Shown here: positions 3,629 to 57,144 of the stretch, piece by piece
Position numbering within the stretch: the stretch's first letter is position 1
How the letters are laid out: each line of letters begins with the position of its first letter
Assembly (NCBI GenBank): GCA_910578285.1
Contig: CAJTQL010000002.1
Coordinates: 30,951 to 94,950, forward strand
DNA: 64,000 nt
Origin: an uncultured Helicobacteraceae bacterium
GTDB lineage: Bacteria; Campylobacterota; Campylobacteria; Campylobacterales; Helicobacteraceae
Direction: 5' to 3'
Translations under genes and position numbers: made by a program
The notes under the pieces: model-generated
What the model was told of the DNA's origin: nothing
The model's input: the letters and a program-made list of their open reading frames with translations, nothing else
The model's database searches: none

Positions 3629-4088
3629 TCTTTTTCCTTTTAGTGAATTTTTCCTTTGCAAATTCATAAGATTCTCGTATCATGATTTTAAATTCTCCAA
3701 AAGTTGTATTAGAGGGATTTAAGACACATACCCAACCCATCCACGCATAGACAGGGTGAGGGATAATGGTATCTAAAATGGTAAAGTCATAATCCATTTT
3801 TACAATATTTCCGGCAGATGGACGTTCGGGGATATGCCCAAAACGTTCAATAAAAGTCTGCTTTCTTAGCCCAACATTGACACGATAGACATTATCACGA
3901 TTCAGCAAAGAAGCTTTATCATTGTCGCCATCTTTTTCTTTGATAGTCAAAACATAGACGCCTCGCTTCAAAACGCCGTTTGGATTATAGAAAATACCTT
4001 TTTCGCCCCAACTCTCCACTAGCGTAGTATCCCTTAAATTAGATAGACAATAAGAAAGAATATCATTAGTCGTCATTGCTTCTTTCAT
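3603..4088 (-). CDS. DUF6194-like protein
   Basis: Start taken at MKEAMTTND (ATG 4088), directly after the upstream stop. The motif block FYNPNGVLKRGVYVLTIKEKDGDNDKASLLNRDNVYRVNVG...HPVYAWMGWVCVLNP matches my recollection of DUF6194. Confidence 0.5.
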   Translation of the reverse strand: MKEAMTTNDILSYCLSNLRDTTLVESWGEKGIFYNPNGVLKRGVYVLTIKEKDGDNDKASLLNRDNVYRVNVGLRKQTFIERFGHIPERPSAGNIVKMDYDFTILDTIIPHPVYAWMGWVCVLNPSNTTFGEFKIMIRESYEFAKEKFTKRKKNEPNNAKI

Positions 4089-4089
4089 T

Positions 4090-4461
4090 TTATGATTCTT
4101 CTCCTTTACGCTTGCCTTTTGCTTTTTTGGGTTGAGGAGTAGGCAAAACTGGAGCAAGAGCAAGAACGACATCTCGCAGAGTTTGTGGCGAATCCACGTC
4201 AAGAATGTAGGATTCTTTAGCGCTGGGATAAGGGAAGCCTTTGGGCGTAGATTTTAAAAGTGTCGCTAGAATCGTATGTTGCTTGACATAGAGCGTCTCA
4301 TCGCAAAGCAAAAAAATCGGCTTTGGCACGGCGCAGGAATCGGACACATAGATACAATACTCGCCAAACATTTTCTTGGCACTGAAACGATATGGCTCGC
4401 CTTGCAACGCGCTATCGAGCGTCTCGAGCACAAAATCCTTGAAGCTTTCACTAGTCGCCAT
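4090..4461 (-). CDS. TfoX/Sxy N-terminal-domain protein
   Basis: 123 aa. FKDFVLETL...KKMFGEYCIYV...LCDETLYVK is typical of the TfoX_N fold. It has a lysine-rich tail. Confidence 0.55.
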   Translation of the reverse strand: MATSESFKDFVLETLDSALQGEPYRFSAKKMFGEYCIYVSDSCAVPKPIFLLCDETLYVKQHTILATLLKSTPKGFPYPSAKESYILDVDSPQTLRDVVLALAPVLPTPQPKKAKGKRKGEES

Positions 4462-4541
4462 GTCTTATGTCCCCGTCCTAATGGAATGTGATATGATAGC
4501 ACAAAAAACGCATTAAAAAATAAATTTATGCGCTGCTCCTA

Positions 4542-4880
4542 TCATTTCTTTGCCTTTAAATATTTTTTAATTAGCTTTATCGCCCAATCATAATGGCTTG
4601 AAGTCGCGCTCACGCAATAGTTTCCGAGACTCGTTGTACCACACCATGGATAATGCTTTTTGATAAAAAGTTCCTTATCTGGTAAGTGTTGTATCATCTC
4701 CATACAAGCGGCATGGCTCTTGTGCAACATAGATTTTGCCTCACTCAAGGGCGTATTTTGGTGCTTTTGCCATAGCTCTTGATTCATTTTTGGATAGGTT
4801 TTGAAATTATAGGGTGCGGGCAAAAAGGGCACGAAAGCATTGGTTTTGCTAAGATTTGTTTGCACAAAAAGAATTTGCAA
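4542..4880 (-). pseudogene. ClbS/DfsB (DUF1706) family four-helix-bundle protein, N-terminally truncated
   Basis: Only about the C-terminal 100 aa is present (…NQELWQKHQNTPLSEAKSMLHKSHAACMEMIQHLPDKELF…WCGTTSLGNYCVSATSSHYDWAIKLIKKY), against about 170 aa for the family. The 5' end abuts the ATPase/TOPRIM cassette. Confidence 0.45.
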
Positions 4881-4918
4881 TTTTTATTGGGGCGAATTGT
4901 TGTAGCTATTTTGCTGCT

Positions 4919-5440
4919 TTACTCATTCTTTAGCCCCAAAAGAAAATCTTTTAATGGTTCTAAAAATTTATGTTCAATATCAAAACATTTTTCAAAATCT
5001 TCCGCCTTCATTTCTTTAGGGTTACATTGTAGAATTTCCTTATACGAAAAAAGTTTTCTTTTAGAATCTGGTGGTTCATACCCCAATCTATTTATGCATT
5101 CTATAAAAGAATTAAAACACTGAATAATATTTTGATGACGTACAATCTTTTCTAAAATTGTTTCAAGGTTTCCACAATCTTGATTATTTGGGAACAAAAA
5201 TATTTTTACTTCGTTGAATTTCTCTTTAATAATATTATTAAAACTTTCTTCAAAATTGTCATCGCAATCAAAAATAATGGCAACTCTATGATGATTGTAT
5301 TCCTCTATTTTTTCACGCACTAAATCAAAATTTTTGTTGCCACCTACTTCTTCAATTTTATATCCTAGCTTTAATTTTTGAGTATAAAATTTTAAAAATT
5401 CTTTATCCTCTTTTCCTTCAACAATCAGCAGTATCTCCAT
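4919..5440 (-). CDS. Small TOPRIM-like protein (DUF3226/DUF4435/DUF4276-type), partner of the upstream ATPase
   Basis: 173 aa. It has N-terminal LLIVEGKEDKEFL (conserved Glu-Gly) and VAIIFDCDDNFEE (DxD), then LFPNNQDCGNLETILE. Its start overlaps the ATPase stop by 1 nt. The gene is very AT-rich. Confidence 0.6.
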   Translation of the reverse strand: MEILLIVEGKEDKEFLKFYTQKLKLGYKIEEVGGNKNFDLVREKIEEYNHHRVAIIFDCDDNFEESFNNIIKEKFNEVKIFLFPNNQDCGNLETILEKIVRHQNIIQCFNSFIECINRLGYEPPDSKRKLFSYKEILQCNPKEMKAEDFEKCFDIEHKFLEPLKDFLLGLKNE

Positions 5441-6456
5441 TATCGCACCTCGATTCCTTCTGCCAACATTTCTTGTACTATATCAACAGAACGCACAAAT
5501 ACTTTAATTTTTTGATCTTGATTCCTTATGAACTTTAACAATGTAAATTCATTACGTAAGGCTTGTGATTCGGAAAGTAAGATATTAATATTTTCTAATA
5601 CTTCTTTGCTGTGTGTTGTAATAAATAATTGAAATTGCTTTTGCCTTGATATTTCAAATAAAGATTGCAATAGTGCCTTAAGTCGTTTATGATAAATGCC
5701 ATTTTCGATTTCATCGATAAAAATACACTTTATATTTTCATCTAACACAGCTGTGACGATATTGAAATATCGCTCAAAACCTTTTCCTAATAGCTTTATA
5801 TCTAATTTTTCTTTAATATTTCTAACTTTTACATGTGGTGCTTCAGGTAGCAATGCAATATCTTCAATGTTGGGGTCAATAATTTGTAATAATTTGACTA
5901 ACTCTTTTTCTTTAGAGTTCTTAATGATTATTGAAAGATTCTCTAAAAATACATTCACAACATCTGCAGGCAGAAAACATCCAACACCAAGAGGTTGGAG
6001 AGGTTGAAAGTGTTCCGAAAAAATATTTCCATTAAGATAATCAAAAAAATATCTTTTCTGCTTTGGGTCTAATAAGTTTTTATAACAAAAGATTTTTTCA
6101 TTTAAATTGATATTTTGGCGAATTATGCCATACTCTTTTTGAAGTTCGTTTTCGCTCTCCAAAGAGATTTCAAAATCATAAGCTTGTTTAGCATATTGAA
6201 ACTCAAAACGTATGGGTTTTTCATAAAAGTTATGAAAAATATTTCCTACATTCATGGAGTTTAAGGGTATTTTGCGTAAATCATAGATATTTTTTAAAAT
6301 CGCCGGATTAAAGGGAGAAAGGGCAATAAATAGGGCTTCCAAAAGTGTTGTTTTTGCCGTATTATTATCGCCCACAATCACATTGATACGACTAAATGAA
6401 TCAATAGAACAATCTTGTAGTGCTCTAAAATTGTGAATATGAATTTTTTCGAACAT
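5440..6456 (-). CDS. ABC/OLD-type (AAA_15/AAA_21-like) ATPase
   Basis: 338 aa. N-terminal MFEKIHIHNFRALQD...INVIVGDNNTAKTTLLEAL is a Walker A with Ala in place of the second Gly. Walker B is CIFIDEIENGIYH, followed by FITTHS (H-loop). Confidence 0.7.
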   Translation of the reverse strand: MFEKIHIHNFRALQDCSIDSFSRINVIVGDNNTAKTTLLEALFIALSPFNPAILKNIYDLRKIPLNSMNVGNIFHNFYEKPIRFEFQYAKQAYDFEISLESENELQKEYGIIRQNINLNEKIFCYKNLLDPKQKRYFFDYLNGNIFSEHFQPLQPLGVGCFLPADVVNVFLENLSIIIKNSKEKELVKLLQIIDPNIEDIALLPEAPHVKVRNIKEKLDIKLLGKGFERYFNIVTAVLDENIKCIFIDEIENGIYHKRLKALLQSLFEISRQKQFQLFITTHSKEVLENINILLSESQALRNEFTLLKFIRNQDQKIKVFVRSVDIVQEMLAEGIEVR

Positions 6457-6576: not shown

Positions 6577-8781
6577 CTACCCCGCAATCTTACCAAGAAT
6601 CGCGTTAAAAGTCGTGCTTGGGCGCATGATTTTTTCGGTTTTGGGGTCATCAAACTTATAATATCCGCCCAAATCAACCTTCACGCCCTGCGCGTCCAAA
6701 AATTCCTTGTGAATCTTTGCCTCGTTGTCGGCAAGCTCTTTGGCAATCGGCGCGAAAAATCCAGCAATTGCAGAATCATCGTCCTGCGCGGCGAGCGCCT
6801 GTGCGAAATACATTGCGAGATAAAAATGGCTTGTGCGGTTGTCGTCCTCGCCAACCTTGCGTGAAGGCGCTTTGTTTGCTTCGAGCCATTTGCCAATCGC
6901 ACCATCGAGCGCGCTCGCGAGCACTTTTGCTTTGTTGTTGTTTTTCTTTTGTGCATAAAATTCGAGGCTTGCTTGCAATGCGAGAAATTCGCCCAAGCTG
7001 TCCCAACGCAAATGGTTCTCATTCACGAGTTGTTCGACTTGTTTGGGTGCGCTTCCGCCAGCACCTGTCTCGAACATCGCCCCGCCATTTAACATAGGCA
7101 CGACTGATAGCATCTTCGCACTTGTGCCGAGCTCAAGAATTGGGAAAAGATCGGTGAGATAGTCGCGCAACACATTCCCGGTGATAGAAATCACGTCTTT
7201 GCCCTCGCGAATGAGCTTGAGCGAGAGTTGGCAAGCCTCTTTGGGGGCGAGAATCTCCATGTCTTTGCCCTTTTCTTTCAATCGCGCACGCACCAAATCA
7301 ATCATAATCTTGTTACTCGCGCGCTTAGAATCAAGCCAGAAAATCGCCTTGCTGCCTGTGAGCTCGGCGCGTTCAATACCTAGATCAATCCAATTTTGCA
7401 CCGCGTCAAACTTCGCTTGGTTGGCGCGATAAATGTCATTTTGATGTACCTTGTGTGAAAGCAAAACCTTACCGCTTTCATCGACAATGCGAAACTCGCC
7501 ATCGCTTGGCGCAAAAAATGTTTTGTCATGTGAGCCATATTCTTGCGCCTTGCGTGCCATAAGCCCGACATTCGCCACGCTGCCGAGTGTCGCGGGGTTG
7601 AGCGCGCCGTTTTGCTTCATGTCGTCCAAGACGGCTTCGTAGATTGTCGCATACGTTTTGTCGGGAATCACGGCGTTGGTGTCGCATTCTTTGCCGTCTT
7701 TGTCCCACAACCGCGCGCCGTTTTTGAGCATTGCGGGCATAGACGCATCGACAATCACATCGCTAGGGACATGCAAATTGGTGATTCCTTTGTCGGAATT
7801 AACCATCGAAATCTTGGCGCTTTTGTTTAGAATCTCTTGATATTTCGCGAGAATCTCGGATTTTTTGGGGCTTTGTTCAATCTTGCTAAGCAGCTCTGAA
7901 ACGCCGTTGTTGGGATTGATGCCGAGTTTTTGCAGCTCGTCTGCGAAAGTGTCGAAGAGTTCTTTGAAATAGGTTTTGACAGCATAGCCGAAAATCACGG
8001 GATCACTGACTTTCATCATCGTTGCCTTGAGGTGGAGCGAAAACAGGATATTCTCTTTTTTGCAAAGCGCAATTTGCTCATCATAGAATCGGCAAAGCGC
8101 GGCGACATCGAGAAATGTTGCATCAAGAATCTCATTTTTTTCAAGCTTGAGCCCGTCTTTGCAGACATTCACCTTGCCATTGTTATCGACAAATTCAATC
8201 CGCGCTGTGGTGGGCGATTCGAGCAATATCGCTTTTTCATTCTCAAAGAAATCACCAGCTCCCATATACGAAACGCATGATTTAGATGCTTTGTCAAAAG
8301 CCGCAACGCGATAGGGATTTTTCTTGGCATATTCTTTAACGGCTTTTGTGCAGCGGCGGTCGGAGTTGCCCTCGCGAAGCACAGGATTCACGGCAGAACC
8401 AAGCACTTTTTGGTATTTTGCCTTAATCGCCTTTTGCTCGTCATTTTGGGGCTCGTCAGGAAACTCGGGCAACGCATAGCCTTTTGCTTGCAATTCTTTG
8501 ATGGTGGCTTTGAGTTGTGGAATTGAAGCGGAGATGTTGGGTGTTTTGATGAGATTTGCCTCGGGGCGCTTGACAAGCTCACCAAGCTGGGCGAGTGAAT
8601 CTTGTACACGTTGCTCGGGCTTGAGAATCTCGGGAAATTGCGCAATCACGCGGGCAGAGAGCGAAATATCAGATGTGGCGACTTCGACATTTGCATGCTT
8701 CAAAAAGGCTTGGACAATCGGCAAAAACGAATAAGTCGCAAGCGCTGGGGATTCATCAGTGAGAGTATAGGTGATTTTCAT
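6577..8781 (-). CDS. icd: Isocitrate dehydrogenase (NADP), monomeric type
   Basis: 734 aa, the size class of monomeric IDH. The N-terminus [23 protein letters not shown] is typical. Confidence 0.93.
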
Positions 8782-8979: not shown

Positions 8980-8990
8980 GGGGGGGGGGG
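8980..8990 (+). repeat. Homopolymeric G11 tract (intergenic, icd/fliI)
   Basis: GTGC-G11-CGGAAT read directly. It lies about 200 bp upstream of the icd start and 157 bp downstream of the fliI stop. Confidence 0.95.
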
Positions 8991-9146: not shown

Positions 9147-10505
9147 TTAGCCCATCAACACGACAAGCGCTTCGATGCTTTGTTCAAAATCCCAGCTCTC
9201 TTCGATTCCTTGTTTCAGAAAGTTTTCCATTGCTTCTTTTTTGTCTATCGCTTCATCAAGTTCTTTGTCTCTGCCCTTTTGATACGCACCAATGCGAATG
9301 AGCACCTCATTTTCGCGCAATAGCGAATACAGCCGCCGAAATTTACGCGCCGCGAGGATATGCGCTTCGGAACACAAATCGTTCATAAGACGCGAAGCTG
9401 AATTGAGAATGTTGATGGGTGGGTAGATTCCAAAGTCTGTGAGCTCACGGCTTAGGACGATGTGCCCGTCCAAAATACTGCGGCTTTGGTCGCCAATGGG
9501 GTCGTTCATGTCGTCTCCCTCGACAAGCACTGTAAAAAACGCCGTGATTGAGCCGCGCCCTTCTTCTTTGCCGGCGCGTTCCATGAGTTGTGGCAAGAGC
9601 GTGAGCACCGATGGTGGATAGCCCTTACTTGTTGGTGGCTCGCCGAGTGCTAGCCCAATCTCGCGCTGCGCCATTGCAAAACGTGTTACAGAATCCATCA
9701 TAAACAAGACATCATGCCCTTGGTCCTTGAAAAACTCTGCCACACTCATTGCCGAAAATGCCCCATATTTACGCATAAGCGGCGAATCATCGCTCGTTGC
9801 GACAACGAGCACTGTGCCGCTTAAATCGCCGCCGAGATTCTTTTCGACAAACTCGGGCACTTCGCGCCCGCGCTCGCCCACAAGCGCGATAATCTTAATC
9901 GGCGCATCGACACCTTTGACAATCATTCCCATAAGCGTGCTTTTGCCCACACCGCTTCCAGCGAAGATGCCGAGCTTTTGTCCCTTGCCACATGTTAGCA
10001 AACCATCAATTGTCTTGATGCCCACATTAAACACTTCGTCAATCATTCCGCGCTTCATTGCGACAATCGGCGGGCGGATAATCGGCGCGCTCTCTGTCGC
10101 GAGAATCTCGCCCTTGCCGTCAATGGGTTGCCCAAGTGGATTGATGACGCGCCCAAGTAATGCCTCGCCAACGGGGATTTGCAAACCTTTGTTGTTGATG
10201 AAGATTCTATCGCCCACACGATTGCCTTCGACAAAAGAGAATGGCGAAATGCTAAAGGTTTGCGTGTCTACAACCGTAACCATTCCCATGCTTTCGTGTC
10301 CGTCCTCATGCCGCACGATTTTGACAATATCGCCCACGCTAGGCTTGAGCCCTGTGGCGACAATGCTATTGGACATCACTTTTGTGATTGTGCCAAAGGC
10401 AGGGGAGAGGGTTGAGACTTCGAGTTTTTTGCGCAGTTGTTCTAGTGCCACGATTCTTCCTTCGTTTGAAAAATCAAGCATAGCACGCTTTTGCTTGTAT
10501 TGCAT
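9147..10505 (-). CDS. fliI: Flagellum-specific (T3SS) ATPase FliI
   Basis: Walker A GSGVGKST and F1/T3SS ATPase core. Start set at MQYKQKR (ATG 10505); the longer ORF to 10610 is probably an upstream extension. Confidence 0.9.
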   Translation of the reverse strand: MQYKQKRAMLDFSNEGRIVALEQLRKKLEVSTLSPAFGTITKVMSNSIVATGLKPSVGDIVKIVRHEDGHESMGMVTVVDTQTFSISPFSFVEGNRVGDRIFINNKGLQIPVGEALLGRVINPLGQPIDGKGEILATESAPIIRPPIVAMKRGMIDEVFNVGIKTIDGLLTCGKGQKLGIFAGSGVGKSTLMGMIVKGVDAPIKIIALVGERGREVPEFVEKNLGGDLSGTVLVVATSDDSPLMRKYGAFSAMSVAEFFKDQGHDVLFMMDSVTRFAMAQREIGLALGEPPTSKGYPPSVLTLLPQLMERAGKEEGRGSITAFFTVLVEGDDMNDPIGDQSRSILDGHIVLSRELTDFGIYPPINILNSASRLMNDLCSEAHILAARKFRRLYSLLRENEVLIRIGAYQKGRDKELDEAIDKKEAMENFLKQGIEESWDFEQSIEALVVLMG

Positions 10506-10612
10506 TAAAGAAACGACTCGCAATAACCAAAAATAAAGTTTTTGTCTGCTAGAATCGCATACCAAAGTTATCGATGAATAGTCGCATAACGTCAAAATAT
10601 CTAGGGGCATTT

Positions 10613-15614: not shown

Positions 15615-16326
15615 ATGACGCAAAAAGATGATGTAATTAAAGCATTACGTGCCAATGATGGTATGGCGACATTGAGTCAACTCTATGCACTTACGGATAT
15701 TTCGCAATGGAAAACAAAAACACCATATGCTTCTATTCGCCGCATTGTGCAGACAAACGAGGAATTTTTCAGGATTCAACCCGGTCTTTGGGGGCTTGTT
15801 GCACAACAAAAAGAGATTCTCGAAAAAATGCACATTTTAGATAACGGGATTGTACAAGATAATGAATGTACGCATGCGTATTATCAGGGTATTGTGGTAG
15901 AGATTGGGAATGCGCGTGGGTTTGAAACATATATTCCACCACAAGATAAAAATAGATTGTTTGTTCATCAAAAATTGAGTGATATTGCCTCGCTACAAAC
16001 AATGCATACGTTCTCATATCAACATATTGTTGCTAAAGCAAAATATATAGATATAGTTTGGTTTAATGAACGTAAAATGCCTTATGCTTTTTTTTGAGGT
16101 GGAACATTCGACAGATTTTAGAAATTCTCTTAATAAATTTTTCGAGCTTCAAGATTTTAGGGCAAAGTTTGTTATTATCGCTAAGCAGGAGAGATTTGGG
16201 CAATTTCAGAAGATTATTGGGGATTCTATCTATCGCCCTATTCAGAATTTGGTGTCGTTTGCAGATTATGAGAGCATTGTAAAACAATATGAAAAGGAGA
16301 CAATGCGCTATGAAATGGGAATCTAA
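15615..16326 (+). pseudogene. Winged-helix (Mrr_N-like) + PD-(D/E)xK-like nuclease protein, frameshifted at a T8 tract (T7 would give an intact protein of about 236 aa)
   Basis: ORF 15615..16097 ends ...ERKMPYAFF*. ORF 16066..16326 continues ...FFEVEHSTDFRNSL in another frame. Deleting one T from T8 (16088-16095) joins them as ...PYAFFEVEHSTD.... The C-terminal module is paralogous to ORF 16744..17679. Confidence 0.7.
16088..16095 (+). repeat. Homopolymeric T8 tract inside the coding sequence
   Basis: Read directly: GC-TTTTTTTT-GAGG. It sits immediately 5' of the EVEHST motif codons. Confidence 0.95.
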
Positions 16327-16409: not shown

Positions 16410-16727
16410 ATGAGTAAAAATAATCAGCAACAAGATGTAAGCAATAAAAAACATTTAGTTTTAGAAACTTTGCTAGAACGATGCCAGAAACGAAATAATC
16501 TTATTTTTGATAATGATTTAGTCAAAGAGATTTGCAGGGAATATTATTTCGGTAATCCATTTGATGTAACAAAGCTTGATTCTAAGGATAAATTGCCGCT
16601 TTCTTTTTTGACAAAAGATATTTGTTTGTTATATTCAGGCAAAGGTCGCCATCGGTTTGTTCATGGTGTTGATAAGCTCTATCATACCTTTGGACACATA
16701 CAAGATACTATTGAACAAATGTATTAG
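16410..16727 (+). CDS. Hypothetical 105-aa protein
   Basis: ORF preceded by AAGGGGGGATTATG. No confidently recognised domain. AT-rich. Confidence 0.4.
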   Translation: MSKNNQQQDVSNKKHLVLETLLERCQKRNNLIFDNDLVKEICREYYFGNPFDVTKLDSKDKLPLSFLTKDICLLYSGKGRHRFVHGVDKLYHTFGHIQDTIEQMY

Positions 16728-16743
16728 GGGGGATTATTGAATA

Positions 16744-17679
16744 ATGGCAAATCCTTATAAAGAACGAGTATTACATTTATTACAGCAAAAATATGGAACA
16801 ATCAAAAGTCTACCCAAAACACAATCCTTATTTGTTGTTGAATCTTTGAACATTGTTCTCTATTTTCGTTATTCCAAAGTATTTCAACATGGAAAAAATG
16901 GATATAAAACATTTTATGGATTAAGGTTTGAAGATTTACAATTTTTGCAAGGCAAACAAGCGTATATTATTTTTCTAAGTGATATGAATAATAAAAGTCT
17001 CGTTATGCCTTTCAGCCATATTGAACATATTCTGACAGAAACAACCCCGTCTTCAGATTCGCAATATAAAACTTTAATATTTTTTAAAAATACAGGAACA
17101 GAGATTTATATTCCTCAATTTGTAAAATTTAATGCCGAAAGTTATTTGGGACTAGAGTCGCTATTAGAATTTAAAAATAAAAACCTTATTGTTCCAGAAA
17201 TCTCACATACACAGGCACAAATATTTATTGGTGCAATTGGGATCTATAAGGGATTTGATATATTTTATCCAGCGAGTGATAGAATAAAAATTGATTTAGA
17301 TATTATAGACAAAAGAAAAATGAGAAATAATCTACCTTATTTTCATAAAGATGTCCAACATATCATGGAAGAAATAGATTGTATTTGGTTAGATTCTACA
17401 AAGATTATATCACTTTTTGAGATTGAACATTCAACTCCTATCTATTCTGGGTTGTTACGCTTTAATGATGTCAATTTAACTATTGCAAATGTCAATAATT
17501 TTAATATTATTGCAAACAGTGAGAGAGAAAATAAATTTCATAAAGAAATTAATCGTCCTACTTTTAAGCAAAATAATTTAATAGAAAAAGTTTCTTTTAT
17601 GACATATTCCAATTTATACTATTGGTATATGAATTTTAAAAATACAGGAGTAAAGCATGATATATTGTCCAAATTGTAG
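16744..17679 (+). CDS. Hypothetical protein with a C-terminal PD-(D/E)xK-like nuclease module (FEIEHST motif)
   Basis: 311 aa. The C-terminal about 150 aa aligns with gene 15615..16326: HTQAQIFIGAIGIYKGFDIFYPASDR / HAYYQGIVVEIGNARGFETYIPPQDK; IDCIWLD..LFEIEHST / IDIVWFN..FFEVEHST; FNIIANSER..F / FVIIAKQER..F. Confidence 0.55.
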   Translation: MANPYKERVLHLLQQKYGTIKSLPKTQSLFVVESLNIVLYFRYSKVFQHGKNGYKTFYGLRFEDLQFLQGKQAYIIFLSDMNNKSLVMPFSHIEHILTETTPSSDSQYKTLIFFKNTGTEIYIPQFVKFNAESYLGLESLLEFKNKNLIVPEISHTQAQIFIGAIGIYKGFDIFYPASDRIKIDLDIIDKRKMRNNLPYFHKDVQHIMEEIDCIWLDSTKIISLFEIEHSTPIYSGLLRFNDVNLTIANVNNFNIIANSERENKFHKEINRPTFKQNNLIEKVSFMTYSNLYYWYMNFKNTGVKHDILSKL

Positions 17680-17863
17680 GAGCAAAGAATTTATTTCAGA
17701 ACTCAATCAATATAATATACTCGAATTTATAGATGGTGATTTTCGCATTATAAGAACCGAATCTGTTGAGGAATATCGCATCTTTTGTAGAGAATGTGGC
17801 AGGGAATTGAGCAATAAAAATGGGCAAATTATTATTAAAGAGCAAAAATCATACAAAGACTAG
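17657..17863 (+). CDS. Small zinc-ribbon protein (CPNC...CREC)
   Basis: 68 aa with two CxxC pairs (CPNC at 4-7, CREC near 45). Its start overlaps the upstream gene by 23 nt. Confidence 0.4.
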   Translation: MIYCPNCRSKEFISELNQYNILEFIDGDFRIIRTESVEEYRIFCRECGRELSNKNGQIIIKEQKSYKD

Positions 17864-17883
17864 CAGAGGGGCATAAGGGCAGA

Positions 17884-18213
17884 ATGCCTTATTCATGGTT
17901 TTATTTCGATTTGGTCAAAAATGTGAGCAAGGATAAAACATTTCATTCATGCCAGATTCCATTGAAACTTGTCGAAATGCTCATCAAGTCTTGCACAAAT
18001 GAGGGAGATTCTGTGTTTATTCTCTTTGGTGGTAGCGGGGGTGAGATTGTATTATGCGAACAACTCAAGCGGCAATGGATAAGCTGTGAGCTGCATAAGC
18101 CCTATTATGAAATGATACTCGATAGATTGAATAATAAGGGCAGAATCAAAGAAGAATTTAGGATAAGTGCCAGAGAGAAAGGCACAGAGAGGCAGGAGAT
18201 GTTTTTATTATAA
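17884..18213 (+). pseudogene. C-terminal fragment of a beta-class (DPPY-first) N4/N6 DNA methyltransferase
   Basis: HSCQIPLKLVEMLIKSCTNEGDSVFILFGGSGGEIVLCEQLKRQWISCELHKPYYEMILDRL corresponds to the H-P-T-x-K-P...FxGSG(T/S)...E...Y block. The DPPY (motif IV) half is absent upstream. Confidence 0.6.
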
Positions 18214-18304: not shown

Positions 18305-18321
18305 GGGGGGGGGGGTAGAAT
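18305..18321 (+). promoter_or_regulatory. G11 tract abutting a -10-like TAGAAT, upstream of the YaaW-flavodoxin gene
   Basis: CAGC-G11-TAGAAT (G11 at 18305-18315, TAGAAT at 18316-18321). The AAGGAG RBS and the ATG at 18352 follow about 30 nt downstream. Confidence 0.45.
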
Positions 18322-18351: not shown

Positions 18352-19605
18352 ATGGCGTATCAAAACGATACTGGTTTGGACTTTTTAAGTCAATGTGACA
18401 ATGAGCTCTTGGGCGTGCTCGTGGAGATTCTGACAAAGGATAAGGGCGAGGAACGATTCACAGAAACATTAACATTGTCTAATGGATACAAAACGTACCA
18501 CCCAGACCATGTAAAATATTGGCGCGACATCGCGGAAAGCTACCAACGATTTGGCGGCAATACGTTTGTCAATATGGTGCGCGGCGGTGGCGTTTTGTAT
18601 CGGGAGATTCTGTGCGATGTGTGCGACAAGCTCAAGGTGAATTACAATAGAGATGCTTCAATAGATTTTATCGAAATTAATCTATTAAGCAAAATTTTAA
18701 CAGATTCTCTTGCGAAAATGACGACAGAACAACTTAAAGAAATAAGCAATGACTTAGGGCTTAAAAATGTTACAAGTTTTACCCCACAAGCAGTAACAAT
18801 TGCAATACAGGGCGCGATGAAGCTTTCTGGATTTATGGTTTATCAAACGGCTGTGATTATTGCAAATATGATTGCTAGGGCTGTTTTGGGGCATGGCTTA
18901 TCTCTTGCTACCAATGCTGCCCTAACAAGAGTCATAGGAGTCTTTTTGGGACCCATAGGCTGGATTATTACAGCACTTTGGACGGCTTTAGATATTGCTG
19001 GACCGGCATATCGCGTTACGATTCCTGCCACAATCCAAATTGCTTGCATGCGGCAGATAATGAATGCGCCAAAAGAGGAAGTGCCCAATGATGTTTGCAA
19101 AAAGCCCATTGGAATCTTCTATGGCAGCGATGGTGGCGACACGGAAAAAGTTGTCGAACAAATTGCAGAAGAATTGAGGGAATATGTCGATGTCAAGATT
19201 TTTAATGTCGCGCAAGCAAGCAAGAATGATTTGCGCCGATATGAGAATCTCATCTTTGCTTCACCAACCTATGGCGAGGGCGATTTGCAGAGTGATTGGG
19301 AAGATTTTCTACCCAAACTTAGCGCCAGCGATGTTGCGGGCAAAACCATTGCCTTTGTCGGGCTTGGCGACCAAGACAGCTATGGCGAAACGTTTTGCGA
19401 AGGCGTTTCACACATCTATGCTAAACTCGCCTCTAGCGCAAAAGTGATTGGGCAAACCAGCACTGATGGCTACAATTTTGAAAGCAGCAAATCTGTTGTA
19501 CGTGGCAAATTCATTGGGCTGATGATTGACGAAGTTAACCAAGACGACCAAACAGAAAAAAGAATCGCCGCATGGGTCGAAGATGTTGTCTATAAGTTTA
19601 ACTAG
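18352..19605 (+). CDS. Fusion protein: DUF3944/YaaW (UPF0174)-like N-terminal region + long-chain flavodoxin
   Basis: The N-terminal about 250 aa (LDFLSQCDNELLGVLVEILTKDK...WRDIAESYQRFGGNTFVNMVRGGGVLYREILCDVCDKLKV...) is followed by hydrophobic helices. The C-terminal about 165 aa (IGIFYGSDGGDTEKV...FASPTYGEGDLQSDWEDF...FVGLGDQDSYGETFCEG...) is flavodoxin. Confidence 0.7.
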   Translation: MAYQNDTGLDFLSQCDNELLGVLVEILTKDKGEERFTETLTLSNGYKTYHPDHVKYWRDIAESYQRFGGNTFVNMVRGGGVLYREILCDVCDKLKVNYNRDASIDFIEINLLSKILTDSLAKMTTEQLKEISNDLGLKNVTSFTPQAVTIAIQGAMKLSGFMVYQTAVIIANMIARAVLGHGLSLATNAALTRVIGVFLGPIGWIITALWTALDIAGPAYRVTIPATIQIACMRQIMNAPKEEVPNDVCKKPIGIFYGSDGGDTEKVVEQIAEELREYVDVKIFNVAQASKNDLRRYENLIFASPTYGEGDLQSDWEDFLPKLSASDVAGKTIAFVGLGDQDSYGETFCEGVSHIYAKLASSAKVIGQTSTDGYNFESSKSVVRGKFIGLMIDEVNQDDQTEKRIAAWVEDVVYKFN

Positions 19606-19736: not shown

Positions 19737-21608
19737 TTAATTTTCCATGTTTTCAATCATCATCTGAACATGTGTTTGATACCATTGATTTCCCCAAAGT
19801 TCTTTGCTAGAAAGTATTTCTTGGAATTTTGGAAAAATATCTTTATATTTTACATGAGATTTGAGGATTCTAATGATATCTTCTGTACTAAGGGGTAAGA
19901 TTTTCATTCCTTTAATATATGTTGTATCATTTTCAAAATAGCAATGGATTCGACTTCTAAAATCATTAATGACATTTTTATCTAAGTATGGCGCAATGAA
20001 TATGCCATAAGTCTTCTCTTGCATTACAGAATTTAGGCTCAATAATAGATTGCCCAAATGTCGTGAAACGCTTTCCATCTCCGCTCTTCTTTGATTGGTT
20101 TTTTCAGTAAGCGTTACTTCAATCATTAGGCTATGGTTATAATAAGAATATACAAAATCAGTATTCCCACCTACTGCATGAGATTTTGGCAAGAGTTGCG
20201 AATCGAGACTTAATCCCGATTCTAAAATCCGTTCGATTTTATTTTCATCAATATAGCACCAAGCAATCGCAATGATATATTCAAAAATGGTAGGAATCGT
20301 TGCTTCAGTTGTCGTTTTTTCATGGATTTTAGAATCATTGTTTCTATCACTAAAGAGTTCTAGTATTTCAATGATATGCTCTCTTGTAAAACGTGTTTGT
20401 AGGAGTTTTTGAAGTTTTTCCTTATCTCTATATTGTTTATAGCTTCTTATGTCTTGTAGATGAGTAATGCCCAATTCTCTAAAGTATTGTTTCATCTCTT
20501 TATCATCAAATAATTCATCTAAAAGATTTTGAGAAACATTACTTTGTGCAATTTGTTTCAAAATTTCTTGATAATTGGAATGTTTTAATATTGTCGAAAA
20601 GATAATATTTAAATCTACTCTGTCTTTGTGAAATTCAAAGATACCAGTGAGATTCAAATATCTACGATTTAAATCCAAATAGTCATTCAAGTTTGCTTGG
20701 ATTCGTGATTCAAAAATAAACCGAAAAAATCTTTTTCCAAATTCTTCTAATGTTCCATCGCAAAAGGCAATCAATTCATTTATTTTTTCTTCCCTCTTGC
20801 TCTTTTTTATTAAATATGGCAAATATAATGTTTTAAAACTTGAATATGCATGTGGGGTGAATAAGTTATGAAAAAACTCAATATTTCTAGTCTTTATAAA
20901 CGGCAAAAATATATTATGGAGAACCTTGACGATTTCTATAGCCGTTTTTTCTCCTTTTGCTGTTTTAAAATATTCTGTCTTTACTGTGTCATTGTATAAG
21001 TCATTTAAAAAATATTCTAACTCTAAATAATGTGGAGTGTTGTGAAGAACGCTCGACATTAATGTATTGTTTTGAATAGCCTCAATGAAATCCTGTGTGT
21101 TTCTAAAGTTGTTTATGAGCGGTAATAATCGAAAAATTTCAATACTTAATTGTCCATTAAAATACCTGAAGGCTTCCAGATATTTAACTAGCAAAGAAGA
21201 ATTATGGTTAAAATTTAATGTGGCTTTGAGAAAAAATAAAGATATTAAATCAATTTGTAAGAATTCATTATTGATTCTATGGCTTTGTGTTTTTATGAGA
21301 TTTAGTAATTCGTAGCCTTGTTGGGTAATGTGTTTTTGTTGGCGATTGATGAGGTTATAGTCTTCTAGCGGAGCAGATTTGACTCTCGCATCTTTTGTGC
21401 CTAAGTCCGCAGTTTTGTTTTTTGATTCTAAGAGATTATGTTGCTCTAAAAGTTCCAAGTATTTTATCTGCAAATCAGAATTGCTACTCCATTTGTCTTT
21501 TTCGTCAGCATTATTGAATAGCTCCTCAAATAAAATCAATTGTGTTTCAAAATTATAGAGTAGATTCTTAACTCTTAAACTCGTGTTCCCAAAATAATCG
21601 TATCCCAT
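19737..21608 (-). CDS. Type IIS restriction endonuclease, AlwI/MlyI/PleI/Nt.BstNBI family
   Basis: 623 aa. The C-terminal block FEYIIAIAW...PKSHAVGGNTDFVYSYYNHSLMIEVTLTEKTNQRRAEMESVSRHLG...GIFIAPYLDKNVINDF...ILPLS parallels the catalytic region of BstNBI-type enzymes as I recall it. It follows two methylase genes. Confidence 0.7.
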   Translation of the reverse strand: MGYDYFGNTSLRVKNLLYNFETQLILFEELFNNADEKDKWSSNSDLQIKYLELLEQHNLLESKNKTADLGTKDARVKSAPLEDYNLINRQQKHITQQGYELLNLIKTQSHRINNEFLQIDLISLFFLKATLNFNHNSSLLVKYLEAFRYFNGQLSIEIFRLLPLINNFRNTQDFIEAIQNNTLMSSVLHNTPHYLELEYFLNDLYNDTVKTEYFKTAKGEKTAIEIVKVLHNIFLPFIKTRNIEFFHNLFTPHAYSSFKTLYLPYLIKKSKREEKINELIAFCDGTLEEFGKRFFRFIFESRIQANLNDYLDLNRRYLNLTGIFEFHKDRVDLNIIFSTILKHSNYQEILKQIAQSNVSQNLLDELFDDKEMKQYFRELGITHLQDIRSYKQYRDKEKLQKLLQTRFTREHIIEILELFSDRNNDSKIHEKTTTEATIPTIFEYIIAIAWCYIDENKIERILESGLSLDSQLLPKSHAVGGNTDFVYSYYNHSLMIEVTLTEKTNQRRAEMESVSRHLGNLLLSLNSVMQEKTYGIFIAPYLDKNVINDFRSRIHCYFENDTTYIKGMKILPLSTEDIIRILKSHVKYKDIFPKFQEILSSKELWGNQWYQTHVQMMIENMEN

Positions 21609-21617
21609 ATAAACTCC

Positions 21618-22547
21618 TTAATAGTTAGTAATTAAGACCTCTGTTGATTCTGTCCTTTTTGTTTGATAGTTGCAATTTTTATAGTTAAATTCTAAAAAAA
21701 ATGTTTTAAAATTTGTGTTTTTCTCGAGCCATTTTTTTAAGACTATATGTTCTTTGCCTTTATGGCAAATAACATTTGAGAGTCCAAAGCGAATTTTTTT
21801 AGAATCTAATATCCTTAAAAATTCAAGCAAATCTAACTCATCTTGCAAGCTCCAAGCTTGATTTTCGTTATATGTCGCAGTTGCTAAAAAATAGGGTGGG
21901 TCAATATAAACAAAACTTTGAGAATCTAAAATGGGGACATCAAACTCCCGAAAATCATTATTGAATATTTCTATATTCTTTTTCTGCAAAGCTATTATAA
22001 AATGTTTGAGTTTTTCTTGCATGTTTGTATTAAAATCTCTTTTGCCACATGGCAGATTAAAATGACCTCTTGCATTGAAACGAATTTGATTGTTGAAGGC
22101 GAAAATAATGAGCACAAATAAATCCAAAGCATTTTTGTGGATATTGTAGCGATTCCTTAATTGTAAAAATTTATCTTTATTAAAGCTTGATAGTCCATTT
22201 TGGCTATTGCATTGATAAAATTCATAGCCCATTTTTGCACTATTAGAAAGCTCAAAAGTAACGATAATATCCCAAATTTCTTCAAAAATCTTTTGCAAAC
22301 TTTGTTTTTGCAATGTTTGATAGATTTGGGTGAGCTGTGTTAAAGAATCGTTTAGGATAATATTGTTGGCTTTTATGTTAATACCTACATTTGCCCCGCC
22401 ACAGAATAAATCCACAGCCGTAGAAATATCTTGTGGGAAAAGTGGCATGATTTGTGGCAAGAGTCTATATTTTCCTCCAGTATAATTTAGAGGGCTTGAA
22501 ATAAAATTTCCTTGCATTTTTAAAGTCAATTCACTTATATTTGGCAT
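21618..22547 (-). CDS. D12-class (Dam-like) N6-adenine DNA methyltransferase, M2
   Basis: PLNYTGGKYRLLPQI, DLFCGGANVG (motif I) and YIDPPY (motif IV). Confidence 0.85.
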   Translation of the reverse strand: MPNISELTLKMQGNFISSPLNYTGGKYRLLPQIMPLFPQDISTAVDLFCGGANVGINIKANNIILNDSLTQLTQIYQTLQKQSLQKIFEEIWDIIVTFELSNSAKMGYEFYQCNSQNGLSSFNKDKFLQLRNRYNIHKNALDLFVLIIFAFNNQIRFNARGHFNLPCGKRDFNTNMQEKLKHFIIALQKKNIEIFNNDFREFDVPILDSQSFVYIDPPYFLATATYNENQAWSLQDELDLLEFLRILDSKKIRFGLSNVICHKGKEHIVLKKWLEKNTNFKTFFLEFNYKNCNYQTKRTESTEVLITNY

Positions 22548-23575
22548 ACAAAAACCCTCTCTTTATGGTCTTTGAATGAAGATTTTCCACTACTGAAAGC
22601 CTTATAATCAAATTCAGCAACGTGTATTGTGCCAACAGAATCTAAAATTTGTTTGATTTCATTTTCTTTTAATCGTGCGTTACTTCTTCCGTTTGCGGTA
22701 TATGTATTATTATATGTCACAACCAAGACCCTGCTCATTTTTGCAAGATTGTCTATCAAATCTCTAAAACTTTGCCTTGCCTCTACCTTGCAATACTTGC
22801 TGATATTTTCTGGCTTTGGTTTGAGTGCCACTCCATATAAATGTGGCTTATCATTTTTGGTAAGCGTTTCGAGTAAATGATAGAATCTTGAATATTGCCT
22901 TGAATTATATGGAGGGTCGATAAAGGCTATGTCAATATGCCGTCTGTGTTCGACGAGCTCTTGGCTTAACATGTTGGAATCTTTTTTGTAAATCTCTATT
23001 TTTGCGTTGCTTTTTATCGGTTCGATGAGTTCAAAGACAAATTTATCCTGCAAGGTAATATTCTTGCGATAGGCATCGTAGTGTCCCACGGTGTTTGCGA
23101 TTCTATCGACACTATAAAGGAGGCTTGCCAAAAGAATCATAAATTCTTGTGGGCAAATTGCGTTTGATTCTAATAATTTATCAAGCTCATCTCTAATAAA
23201 ACCTATCAATCTAGAATCGTTCTCACTAAAAAACTTGCCGCCAAAATGCTTGGAATAATAGTTCGATTCCAAATCTCGTGCTTCTATGCCCCGAAATAGA
23301 GATTGAATCGCCTCTATTTTCTGCCAATCAAACGTTTCTTGAGGAAAGAATGCCTGATAAATGGTAGAGTTGGAATGCAAAAAATCATTCAAGATAAAAT
23401 GCCCAAATTGTGGTTTTTGCATAAAATATGCGCTCACAACACCTGTGCCAGCAAAAACATCAAAAAAGCAAAGATTTTGATATTTAGTATAATCAAAAAC
23501 AGATAATAACGTTTCGTCAATTCTTTCCAATAATTTTGTTTTTGCTCCCGTATAGCGGCGATTGGCAAGTTTCAA
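22535..23575 (-). CDS. D12-class N6-adenine DNA methyltransferase, M1
   Basis: RRYTGAKTKLL, DVFAGTGVV (motif I) and FIDPPYNSRQY (motif IV). TTG start 7 nt after AGGAG. It overlaps M2 by 13 nt. Confidence 0.85.
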   Translation of the reverse strand: MKLANRRYTGAKTKLLERIDETLLSVFDYTKYQNLCFFDVFAGTGVVSAYFMQKPQFGHFILNDFLHSNSTIYQAFFPQETFDWQKIEAIQSLFRGIEARDLESNYYSKHFGGKFFSENDSRLIGFIRDELDKLLESNAICPQEFMILLASLLYSVDRIANTVGHYDAYRKNITLQDKFVFELIEPIKSNAKIEIYKKDSNMLSQELVEHRRHIDIAFIDPPYNSRQYSRFYHLLETLTKNDKPHLYGVALKPKPENISKYCKVEARQSFRDLIDNLAKMSRVLVVTYNNTYTANGRSNARLKENEIKQILDSVGTIHVAEFDYKAFSSGKSSFKDHKERVFVCQI

Positions 23576-51927: not shown

Positions 51928-52063
51928 ATACAAAAAATCCCAATTCCATTTCTATTCCTCTAAAATAAACATTTTTTTTTGCTTTCCCTAGTAATTTAAA
52001 ATTTATCTAAGAATAAAAAGGTATCATTGTATTACATTATAATTTTCTACAAATGGAGTCGCT

Positions 52064-55292: not shown

Positions 55293-56039
55293 TCATGGAG
55301 CCATCATGCTGCTTGCATTATCCTGCGTGCGGGGGGGGGGGGCAGAATGCGTTGTTTTGTTGTCATAGAGCATGACGGCGATGTTGGGCTCGCGCGGCAT
55401 GCGTTCAATGCAATAGACGACTTCAAGCGGCAGCTCAAAGGGCGGCTTGCGCAAGTCAAGCGCACGATATTGCGTGGGCAGAATGTCGGCATTGACATGT
55501 TCGCTAATATCATTTGCAATCAGTGCATAAGTAAACTTAGGGAGAATCGCGATGAAGTCGTGGATTTTTGCATTAGGCAGGTGTTGCAAGACATCTTTGC
55601 AGATGAGTAAATCGGCGGGTTGAATCTGCGCAAAATCACCATTGTAATGCACAAAATTGATGTTTTCTTTTGCATAACGTGCGTTGTTTGCGTTGATAAC
55701 AAAAGACGCGACATCATAGCCTGTATAAGACGCATGTCCCCAATCGATATTCTTTGAAAACTGCCAATCGCCACAGCCGACATCAGCGATTGTGTGAATC
55801 TCGTGTTTGCGCAAAAAGTCTTGCAAAAACATCATATAGCCGCGCAAAAGCCCCTCTTTGCTGCCGCTACCGCTGCCATTGCCCCACATGTTCGTTTCAT
55901 AGACGGTGTCAAAGAGCATGTTCAGATTCTGCGCATTTTGCTTCAAAAGCATGGTTTTGATGAAATCCAGCTTGCTATTTGTTTGCTGCAAGAACATCAC
56001 GAGTTGTTGAAAGAATCGCTCATCAAGTTGCACGGGCAT
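55293..56039 (-). CDS. Class I SAM-dependent methyltransferase
   Basis: Motif I IADVGCGDWQF. Start set at MPVQLDERFF (ATG 56039), overlapping the pseC stop by 17 nt. Confidence 0.75.
   Translation of the reverse strand: MPVQLDERFFQQLVMFLQQTNSKLDFIKTMLLKQNAQNLNMLFDTVYETNMWGNGSGSGSKEGLLRGYMMFLQDFLRKHEIHTIADVGCGDWQFSKNIDWGHASYTGYDVASFVINANNARYAKENINFVHYNGDFAQIQPADLLICKDVLQHLPNAKIHDFIAILPKFTYALIANDISEHVNADILPTQYRALDLRKPPFELPLEVVYCIERMPREPNIAVMLYDNKTTHSAPPPRTQDNASSMMAP
55331..55342 (+). repeat. Homopolymeric G12 tract (C12 on the coding strand) in the 3' end of the methyltransferase gene
   Basis: GTGC-G12-CAGAAT. It encodes ...SAPPPR... 13 codons before the stop. Confidence 0.95.
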
Positions 56040-57144
56040 CGGCGCCTCTTTCCGCACAAAGTGCGTTGAAGGTTTTGGCAATCTCGACTGCTTGATCTTC
56101 TGTCATCTCTTGGTGGCAGGGCAAGGAGAGCTCGGCGAGATAGAAATCATACGCCACAGGAGTTGCAGACGAATCCGCGCCATAGAGCGCATAGGAATTG
56201 ATAGGCTTGTAATGCACTTGCACGCCAATGCCCTTTTCGTGGAGCTGCATAAACAGCGATTCTTTGCTACACCAAAGCGCGCGCGAGAGGAAGATGGGAT
56301 AGAGATGGTGGGTGCTATACAGGCGCGATTCACGTTTGAGTGTGGTGCAATAGGGTGAATTGGCAAAGAGTGAATCATAGAGCTGCACAATCACTTCGCG
56401 CTTTGCGATGAAGCTATCAAGCCGCTTGTATTGTGAGATTCCAAGTGCTGCGCCAAGTTCGTTTAGCCGAAAGTTGAAGCCCAAAAATTCCACTTCGCTA
56501 TTCCATAGCGCCCTTTTTTGCACGCCATGCGAATGTAGTAGCTGCGCCTTTTGGTGTGCTTTTGCGTCTTTGAACACAACCGCGCCGCCCTCTGCTGTGG
56601 TGATGGGCTTAATCGCATGGAAGCTGAAGATGGTCGCATCAGCAAAGCTGCCCACAGGAGAATCGCCCACGCGCGCACCGAATGCATGCGAGCTGTCAGA
56701 AATCCAGAGCAAGCCATGCTTTTTAGCGATGTGCGCAATGGAATCGACTGCAACGGATTGCCCGGCATAATCCACGCTCACAATCGCCTTTGTGCGAGGG
56801 GTGATGAGCGCTTCAATTTTTGATTCATCGATATTGCCATTTTGCTTAATATCGCAAAAAATAGGCTTTGCACCGAGTGCAAGGAGCATATTGGTCGTGG
56901 CGACAAAGCTAATGGGCGTGGTGATGACTTCGTCATCGCAGCCGATTCCAAGTGCAGCGTAGGCACAATACAATGCCGAAGTAGCAGAGTTGAGCGCGAG
57001 CGCATAAGGAGCACCGGCGCGCGCAGCAACGAGGCTTTCAAATTCGCTAACGCGCTGCCCTTGTGTGAGATGCGAGCTAAACAGCGCCTCTTTGAGCGAT
57101 TCTAAATCATCGCTATTCACCGATTGCTTGCTGTATGGAATCAT
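56023..57144 (-). CDS. pseC: UDP-4-amino-4,6-dideoxy-N-acetyl-beta-L-altrosamine transaminase (DegT/DnrJ family)
   Basis: MIPYSKQSVNSDDL...LTQG, FNSATSAL-type block, SFHAIKPITTAEGGAV (PLP Lys), HNFRLNE-type block, and YHLYPI. Closely colinear with H. pylori PseC as I recall it. Confidence 0.88.
   Translation of the reverse strand: MIPYSKQSVNSDDLESLKEALFSSHLTQGQRVSEFESLVAARAGAPYALALNSATSALYCAYAALGIGCDDEVITTPISFVATTNMLLALGAKPIFCDIKQNGNIDESKIEALITPRTKAIVSVDYAGQSVAVDSIAHIAKKHGLLWISDSSHAFGARVGDSPVGSFADATIFSFHAIKPITTAEGGAVVFKDAKAHQKAQLLHSHGVQKRALWNSEVEFLGFNFRLNELGAALGISQYKRLDSFIAKREVIVQLYDSLFANSPYCTTLKRESRLYSTHHLYPIFLSRALWCSKESLFMQLHEKGIGVQVHYKPINSYALYGADSSATPVAYDFYLAELSLPCHQEMTEDQAVEIAKTFNALCAERGADARAT

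Follow-up and report, generated by a model that had tools for sequence, protein, structure and literature searches.

In the window, by which we mean the whole stretch of 64,000 nucleotides that we analysed, a putative restriction-type nuclease gene is interrupted by one additional T in a homopolymer, and we consider it likely that this is a fixed and recent +1T frameshift, that is, an ordinary gene loss and not a switch. Because the break is common to every public assembly of the lineage, a mouse-gut Helicobacter, it looks like an ordinary recent loss and not like an on/off device. A word of caution follows for the annotation of such loci: a frameshift in a short A/T homopolymer of a Helicobacter restriction-modification (R-M) gene is easily misread as phase variation.

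The T8 lesion and the interrupted protein

The text of the window at the site, read directly, is ...AAA ATG CCT TAT GCT TTT TTT TGA GGT GGA... The T8 homopolymer occupies positions 16088-16095 of the plus strand; it has one T more than the T7 (GCT TTT TTT) of intact alleles, and a TGA stop codon (16095-16097) begins with its last T. This stop closes the plus-strand ORF 15615-16097, of 160 aa, whose product ends in ...PYAFF. On the basis of the ORF, of a structural model, of matches to forkhead domains and of a precomputed PF27126 assignment, this 5′ part would code for a winged helix (residues ~1-72) and for the first half of a nuclease domain of NmeDI_C type. The 3′ part of the gene (16096-16326, plus strand) now lies in the +1 frame and consists of 76 codons and a TAA; it carries the invariant E161-V-E163-H164-S-T and the remainder of the nuclease domain, with no further stops or indels.

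If one T is deleted, the ORF 15615-16097 is joined to the frame 16096-16326 and a protein of 236 aa is obtained (...PYAFFEVEHSTDFRNSL...YEMGI*), whereas the addition of one T (T9) gives an unrelated product of 222 aa. In the alignment of homologues the break falls between F160 and E161, directly before the invariant E161-x-E163-H164 motif. The T8 allele consequently does not encode a complete domain: the invariant D146 and the E161-x-E163-H164 motif are split over two frames, with the stop after F160. The initial annotation had stated that T8 truncates the gene and that T7 restores its full length, and this was confirmed, 236 aa being the standard length of the family, with more than 1,400 full-length homologues colinear with the restored product. 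Its placing of the tract directly 5′ of the putative catalytic motif was likewise correct, as the stop immediately precedes E161-x-E163-H164.

The 236-aa fused sequence gave 1,490 protein matches at E ≤ 0.001, the best of which is also 236 aa in length (E = 1.6e-151, 97% identity), so that we do not regard it as a chance ORF. The best 120 of these 1,490 matches are 214-249 aa in length and all carry PF27126 (NmeDI_C); the assignments to PF27126 are precomputed annotations, also those on the 160-aa stub and on a 311-aa paralogue described below. With PADLOC, residues 82-191 matched the REase_II model PDLC03534 (351 positions; profile positions 173-323) with E = 6.3e-9. In the local Pfam search a HARE-HTH match was obtained only below threshold (14.2 bits against a cut-off of 25.9, E = 0.061), and one homologue is titled 'HTH HARE-type domain-containing protein' by one source. 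No NCBIfam model matched the 236-aa protein or its neighbours.

We aligned 40 homologues from Campylobacterota, Neisseriaceae, Clostridia and other groups, which are 55-65% identical. The invariant positions of this alignment include, among others, D146, W149, F150, N151, R153, P156, F159, E161, E163 and T166. An AlphaFold model computed on the alignment (pLDDT 83.6, pTM 0.83) predicts a winged-helix-like N-terminus, with the topology H-E-H-H-E-E, and an alpha/beta C-terminal domain in which D146 would open one strand and E161 and E163 would lie in the next (156-162). According to the model, the T8 truncation, which the initial annotation had suggested would leave a DNA-binding-only stub, would sever a core beta-strand of the nuclease domain. 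When the model was compared with the PDB by Foldseek, residues ~1-80 matched forkhead winged-helix domains (probability 0.99-1.0, target TM 0.59-0.64, E from 0.02 to 0.1), and the C-terminal domain gave weak matches only, to EcoT38I (E = 0.064, probability 0.75), to YaeQ and to the 'restriction endonuclease-like fold' of 3ijm (probability 0.47); no Foldseek match to the PDB reached E ≤ 0.001. The sequence-profile search of the PDB returned chance matches to S15 only.

From the forkhead fold matches and the NmeDI_C/REase_II family matches we drew the reading of the protein as a winged helix, with support at the level of fold, joined to a restriction-type nuclease, with support at the level of family, which appears reasonable for a protein whose catalysis we infer. 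Precisely, the N-terminus would be a winged helix similar to HARE-HTH and the C-terminus a restriction-endonuclease domain of NmeDI_C type. The identity of a winged-helix nuclease, which had first been proposed from the letters of the DNA, finds support in the forkhead matches (probability 1.0), in NmeDI_C and in the PADLOC REase_II model, the catalytic activity being putative. This uncharacterised winged-helix/NmeDI_C family may itself merit biochemical study, a point that is separate from the frameshift.

The lesion may have arisen when an ordinary T7 run was lengthened to T8, by replication slippage or by any single-base insertion. Translation would now halt at the TGA after F160. Because the truncated product would be without the invariant E161-x-E163-H motif and without the last 76 residues, the nuclease should be dead.

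Length of the tract in relatives and within the lineage

In the intact relatives, all of which code for 236 aa, the site reads GCT TTT TTT GAG (T7; L001, L002 and L094-L096) or GCA TTT TTT GAG (T6; L097-L100). The codons GCT/GCA-TTT-TTT are those of Ala-Phe-Phe and account for the length of the run in these relatives; the difference between T6 and T7 is, judging from the codons, a synonymous change of the Ala codon and not slippage. We also scanned a genome collection, considering the best 80 loci, among which the species of the window is not represented. The T run at the homologous Ala/Ser-Phe-Phe/Tyr-Glu codons was 2-7 nt long, and never longer than 7, in 67 intact homologues that represent many phyla. 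As far as the coding sequences indicate, the run is a by-product of coding Phe-Phe in A+T-rich genomes.

The T7 and T6 alleles used for comparison belong to lineages other than the species-level lineage of the window, and their flanking GGDEF, def and comM genes are 89-91% identical to those of the window. Every intact allele differs from that of the window at no fewer than five residues, and none has its A13, I145 and Q191. The cluster at 90% identity contains ten distinct intact alleles of 236 aa and one allele of 160 aa.

The identical 160-aa stub is present on 28 public contigs (NCBI, ENA and Logan), a number equal to that of the contigs with the exact Def of the clone (28) and near to that of the contigs with its exact ClpP (26). 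All the 20 stub contigs that were read collapse to one layout, 160 aa followed by 80 aa, and one layout also resulted from the 20 contigs that were examined for DUF6996, the neighbouring protein. One stub contig, compared with the window, showed one mismatch in 6,483 bases. The exact T7 product in the background of the clone is absent from a set of ~15 billion proteins, and in the same set there is none of the exact T6, T9 and T10 products. When JGI metagenome contigs were scanned with a pattern allowing a variable number of Ts, AAAATGCCTTATGCTTTTTTN{0,4}GAGGTGGAACATTC, there was no match. The initial annotation had proposed to compare the tract in related isolates; in the assemblies the length is T8 throughout the lineage (28 contigs) and T7 or T6 in the relatives, these lengths being those of consensus assemblies, in which a minority of T7 cells within a sample would not show. 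The 28 contigs may represent one recently spread clone, and in that case they sample little evolutionary time.

Homopolymers are error-prone on some sequencing platforms, and the T8 could for this reason be a sequencing or assembly artefact in a gene that is really intact. We give this explanation hardly any credence: the 160-aa product is called on the 28 contigs, which derive from three independent sources (NCBI, ENA and Logan), and the same collection resolves T7 and T6 in related alleles. The artefact, which the initial annotation had named as an alternative, is thereby effectively refuted.

As a positive control we used a poly-G tract of the same window, the G12 at 55331-55342. It is a poly-C in the coding strand of a gene for a class I SAM-dependent methyltransferase (55293-56081, minus strand), near its 3′ end, and three lengths of it are recorded in a protein that is otherwise identical, C11 in 4 contigs, C12 in 7 contigs and C13 in 2 contigs. 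The C-terminal tail of this methyltransferase is genuinely variable in length, and since all three lengths are recorded, the public collection does expose variation of tract length in this organism. The poly-G varies and the T8 does not in the same public data, and the locus is therefore best annotated as a frameshifted (pseudo)gene of the winged-helix/NmeDI_C family. Helicobacter is not known to possess mismatch repair of MutL/MutH type; in its absence homopolymers would be less stable, which counts against the reading of a fixed frameshift.

The competing explanation is a true contingency locus, in which slipped-strand mispairing would toggle T8 (OFF) and T7 (ON) and so turn the nuclease on and off at a useful rate. 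The lesion does sit in a homopolymer, the loss of a single base restores the gene, the downstream frame is intact, T7 and T8 both occur among related Helicobacter contigs, and R-M genes of H. pylori are often toggled at homopolymers (PMC3936762). On the other hand, no T6, T7, T9 or T10 variant stands against the 28 T8 contigs, whereas the poly-G of the same genome has three lengths; T7 and T8 were never found mixed in one background, the T7 alleles being at least five residues away and their flanks 89-91% identical; and in the 67 homologues the tract is neither extended nor conserved beyond what the codons need. The run is also short. The cut-offs applied to Campylobacter with PhasomeIt are ≥7 for poly-G/C and ≥10 for poly-A/T (PMC6321876), and a methylome study of H. 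pylori considered reactivation likely for repeats '>8 bp' (PMC3936762), both of which exceed T8. We consequently regard a switch of this kind as improbable. The slipped-strand ON/OFF switching that the initial annotation had put forward is not sustained, given the single length in 28 contigs, a run set by codons and a length below the published cut-offs.

The locus shares with the R-M genes of H. pylori and Campylobacter (PMC3936762, PMC6321876) a break in a homopolymer whose correction by one base restores the full length. It differs from the documented switches, which have poly-G/C of at least 7-8 or poly-A/T of at least 10 and vary between isolates, in that its T8 is fixed and determined by coding. 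It resembles, in this respect, the class of the 'authentic frameshift' and not the switching class.

The frequency of A/T runs in the window falls off smoothly, with 335, 134, 30, 5 and 1 runs of 5, 6, 7, 8 and 9 nt, respectively. The four other A8/T8 runs, at 21694, 31125, 38828 and 40261, are inside long intact ORFs. The longest A/T run of the window, a T9 at 51972-51980, is outside any stop-to-stop frame of at least 80 codons.

Two further long poly-G tracts were found in the window. A G11 at 18305-18315 is placed between a -35-like region and a TAGAAT -10 box, ~40 nt upstream of a DUF3944-flavodoxin fusion gene (18352-19605); elsewhere the same tract is G10 in L001 and G11 in L002, L003 and L094. 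This G11 is, as a promoter-spacer tract, a far better candidate for phase variation than the T8. The other, a G11 at 8980-8990, is intergenic, between the minus-strand ORFs 6577-8781 and 9147-10610, and may be another variable tract associated with a promoter.

Age of the frameshift and possible residual expression

We compared the two parts of the broken gene with the nearest T7 alleles. The downstream 76 codons differ from them by 5 synonymous and 1 non-synonymous changes and contain neither another stop nor another indel; in the 160 codons upstream there are twelve synonymous and five non-synonymous changes. Such little damage downstream indicates that the frameshift came late in comparison with the divergence of the alleles or, alternatively, that the downstream frame retains some use. 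A reversible or a leaky state would fit the undamaged downstream frame equally well.

A leaky OFF state would arise if RNA polymerase slipped on the U8/A8 and produced some U7 transcripts, or if tRNA-Phe slipped by +1 at UUU-UGA, in both cases with a little full-length nuclease. The sequence U UUU UUU UGA G offers a perfect site for the re-pairing of tRNA-Phe directly before the stop, runs of eight A allow productive slippage of transcription in certain organisms, with ~10% of full-length product in the case of apoB (PMC1088944), and an undamaged downstream frame would persist if it were still expressed. Selection against slippage, however, typically becomes evident from nine bases (PMC1088944); a direct reading of the segment upstream of the site (AAAATGCCTTATGC) revealed no Shine-Dalgarno-like stimulator; and the combination of T8 and TGA is confined to one clone and absent from diverged homologues. 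We hold leaky expression to be unlikely on these grounds.

Programmed recoding, either as a +1 frameshift of prfB type or as transcriptional slippage, was considered separately and rejected. As T8 followed by TGA is not kept in any diverged homologue, there is no programmed recoding site; the stimulator is lacking and the run does not reach the usual 9.

A wider formulation would be that the T8 allele is 'dimmed' and not dead, a trickle of nuclease being supplied by rare reversion of T8 to T7, by RNA slippage or by +1 re-pairing of tRNA-Phe. We think it rather unlikely. Were it true, the lineage would retain a restriction-type enzyme in an amount small enough to be tolerated, the methyltransferase beside it having been destroyed, and the undamaged downstream frame of 76 codons would be the trace of a continued use.

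Family neighbourhoods and the restriction-modification islet

The 236-aa family is found with 50-65% identity across many phyla, including one archaeal MAG. We considered the immediate neighbours of its members in 80 species. There were 13 DpnII endonuclease genes, 11 of which are fragments of 115-127 aa, six intact D12 adenine methyltransferases, located directly upstream on the same strand, and 7 N6_N4 methyltransferases, together with parts of type I R-M systems and AlwI-family enzymes. Solitary copies of the family gene were found in C. lari, inside the his operon, and in R. bromii, where pckA precedes the gene. The copy of H. cinaedi is flanked by a DpnII fragment on one side and by a methyltransferase fragment of 79 aa on the other, and truncated DpnII and methyltransferase neighbours are also present in the C. 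concisus/showae group. These arrangements are consistent with a mobile gene of restriction type that is associated with m6A systems, and suggest that it displaces or partners those of GATC type.

A type IV reading, that is, a Gm6ATC-dependent enzyme similar to DpnI, had been raised by three features, the winged helix, the occurrence of solitary copies and the remnants of DpnII. We did not adopt it because several homologues are located directly downstream of intact D12 methyltransferases. An operon with this order of methyltransferase and restriction gene would point to a type II enzyme that is sensitive to methylation more than to a type IV enzyme that depends on it.

Among characterised enzymes, R.NmeDI of Neisseria meningitidis is a type II endonuclease of 351 aa, which recognises RCCGGY and cuts 12/7 on both sides (PMC2095814). 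The protein described here shares with it an N-terminal DNA-binding part and a C-terminal cleavage domain, putative in our case and indicated by the NmeDI_C/REase_II matches. It differs from NmeDI in its length (236 against 351 aa) and in its winged-helix N-terminus. Moreover, NmeDI belongs to a C5 cytosine system, whereas the methyltransferases that neighbour the 236-aa family across species are N6-adenine/N4 enzymes, of D12 or N6_N4 class. The combination of a winged-helix reader and a nuclease is also that of the endonucleases with winged-helix/HARE-HTH fusions, such as DpnI and HhiV4I (PMC11037411). A further resemblance is that many members are solitary, with no methyltransferase. The DpnI/HhiV4I group, however, has a different order of domains and a different nuclease family, and several of the 236-aa homologues are in an operon with an intact D12 methyltransferase upstream.

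The gene belongs, in the window, to an R-M islet that is small and variable and is bordered by comM and the DUF3944-flavodoxin gene. Losses of R-M genes are common in such islets of Helicobacter. The islet would be one that decays and is exchanged laterally, and the frameshift an ordinary loss, within it, of a gene of restriction type.

Downstream of the broken gene there are, all on the plus strand, four further ORFs. The first (16410-16727) codes for a DUF6996 protein of 105 aa (PF22515, E = 3.8e-11), probably a remnant of the DUF6996/DUF6997 pair that in related strains adjoins an intact methyltransferase. The second (16744-17679) codes for an intact paralogue of 311 aa with a C-terminal domain of NmeDI_C type (precomputed PF27126), which aligns with residues 84-221 of the 236-aa protein (BLASTP, 29% identity, E = 7e-10) and matches the same PADLOC REase_II model of 351 positions, also over profile positions 173-323 (E = 6.7e-13). 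The correspondence of motifs between the two proteins had been noted in the initial annotation and holds in this alignment, FFEVEHST of the restored protein pairing with LFEIEHST of the paralogue. The third (17657-17863) is an ORF of 68 aa with weak zinc-ribbon matches; it overlaps the end of the 311-aa gene and is always found with it. The fourth (17884-18213) is a remnant, 109 aa long, of an N6/N4 DNA methyltransferase, with matches to positions 148-219 of the 221 of PF01555 and to positions 165-261 of the 264 of MTase_II; it corresponds to the C-terminal ~100 residues of an enzyme of ~264-268 aa, of which an intact version of 268 aa is present in L097 and L098.

The order of genes in L097 and L098 is the 236-aa gene, DUF6996, DUF6997 and the intact 268-aa N6_N4 methyltransferase, the last being two genes away from the 236-aa gene. 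In the window, and in L001, L002, L094 and L095, the 311-aa paralogue and the 68-aa ORF stand in place of DUF6997 and of the 5′ two thirds of the methyltransferase; L100 has the same paralogue cassette, with no DUF6996. The mosaic islet spans 16410-18213 in the window, and its counterpart in L097 and L098 spans 3795-5521. Between the lineage of the window and L001, L002 and L094-L096 the islet is 96.8-100% identical, with flanks, where covered, at ~89%. An identity so far above that of the flanks (89-91%) indicates a recent lateral exchange.

In L097 and L098 the ORFs of DUF6996 (94 aa) and DUF6997 (216-225 aa), at 3795-4713, overlap by 17-44 nt. Possibly a single gene has been divided here by a frameshift, which would make it another damaged restriction gene of the islet.

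The search against Rfam returned no RNA family in the window. On the minus strand, the region 19737-23575 contains an AlwI-family endonuclease gene (623 aa) and, upstream of it, two D12-class adenine methyltransferases (309 and 346 aa; 21618-23575), which together are apparently a complete type IIS R-M system of the AlwI family. The first of these D12 methyltransferase genes has an in-frame T8 (A8 on the plus strand, 21694-21701) and is undisrupted.
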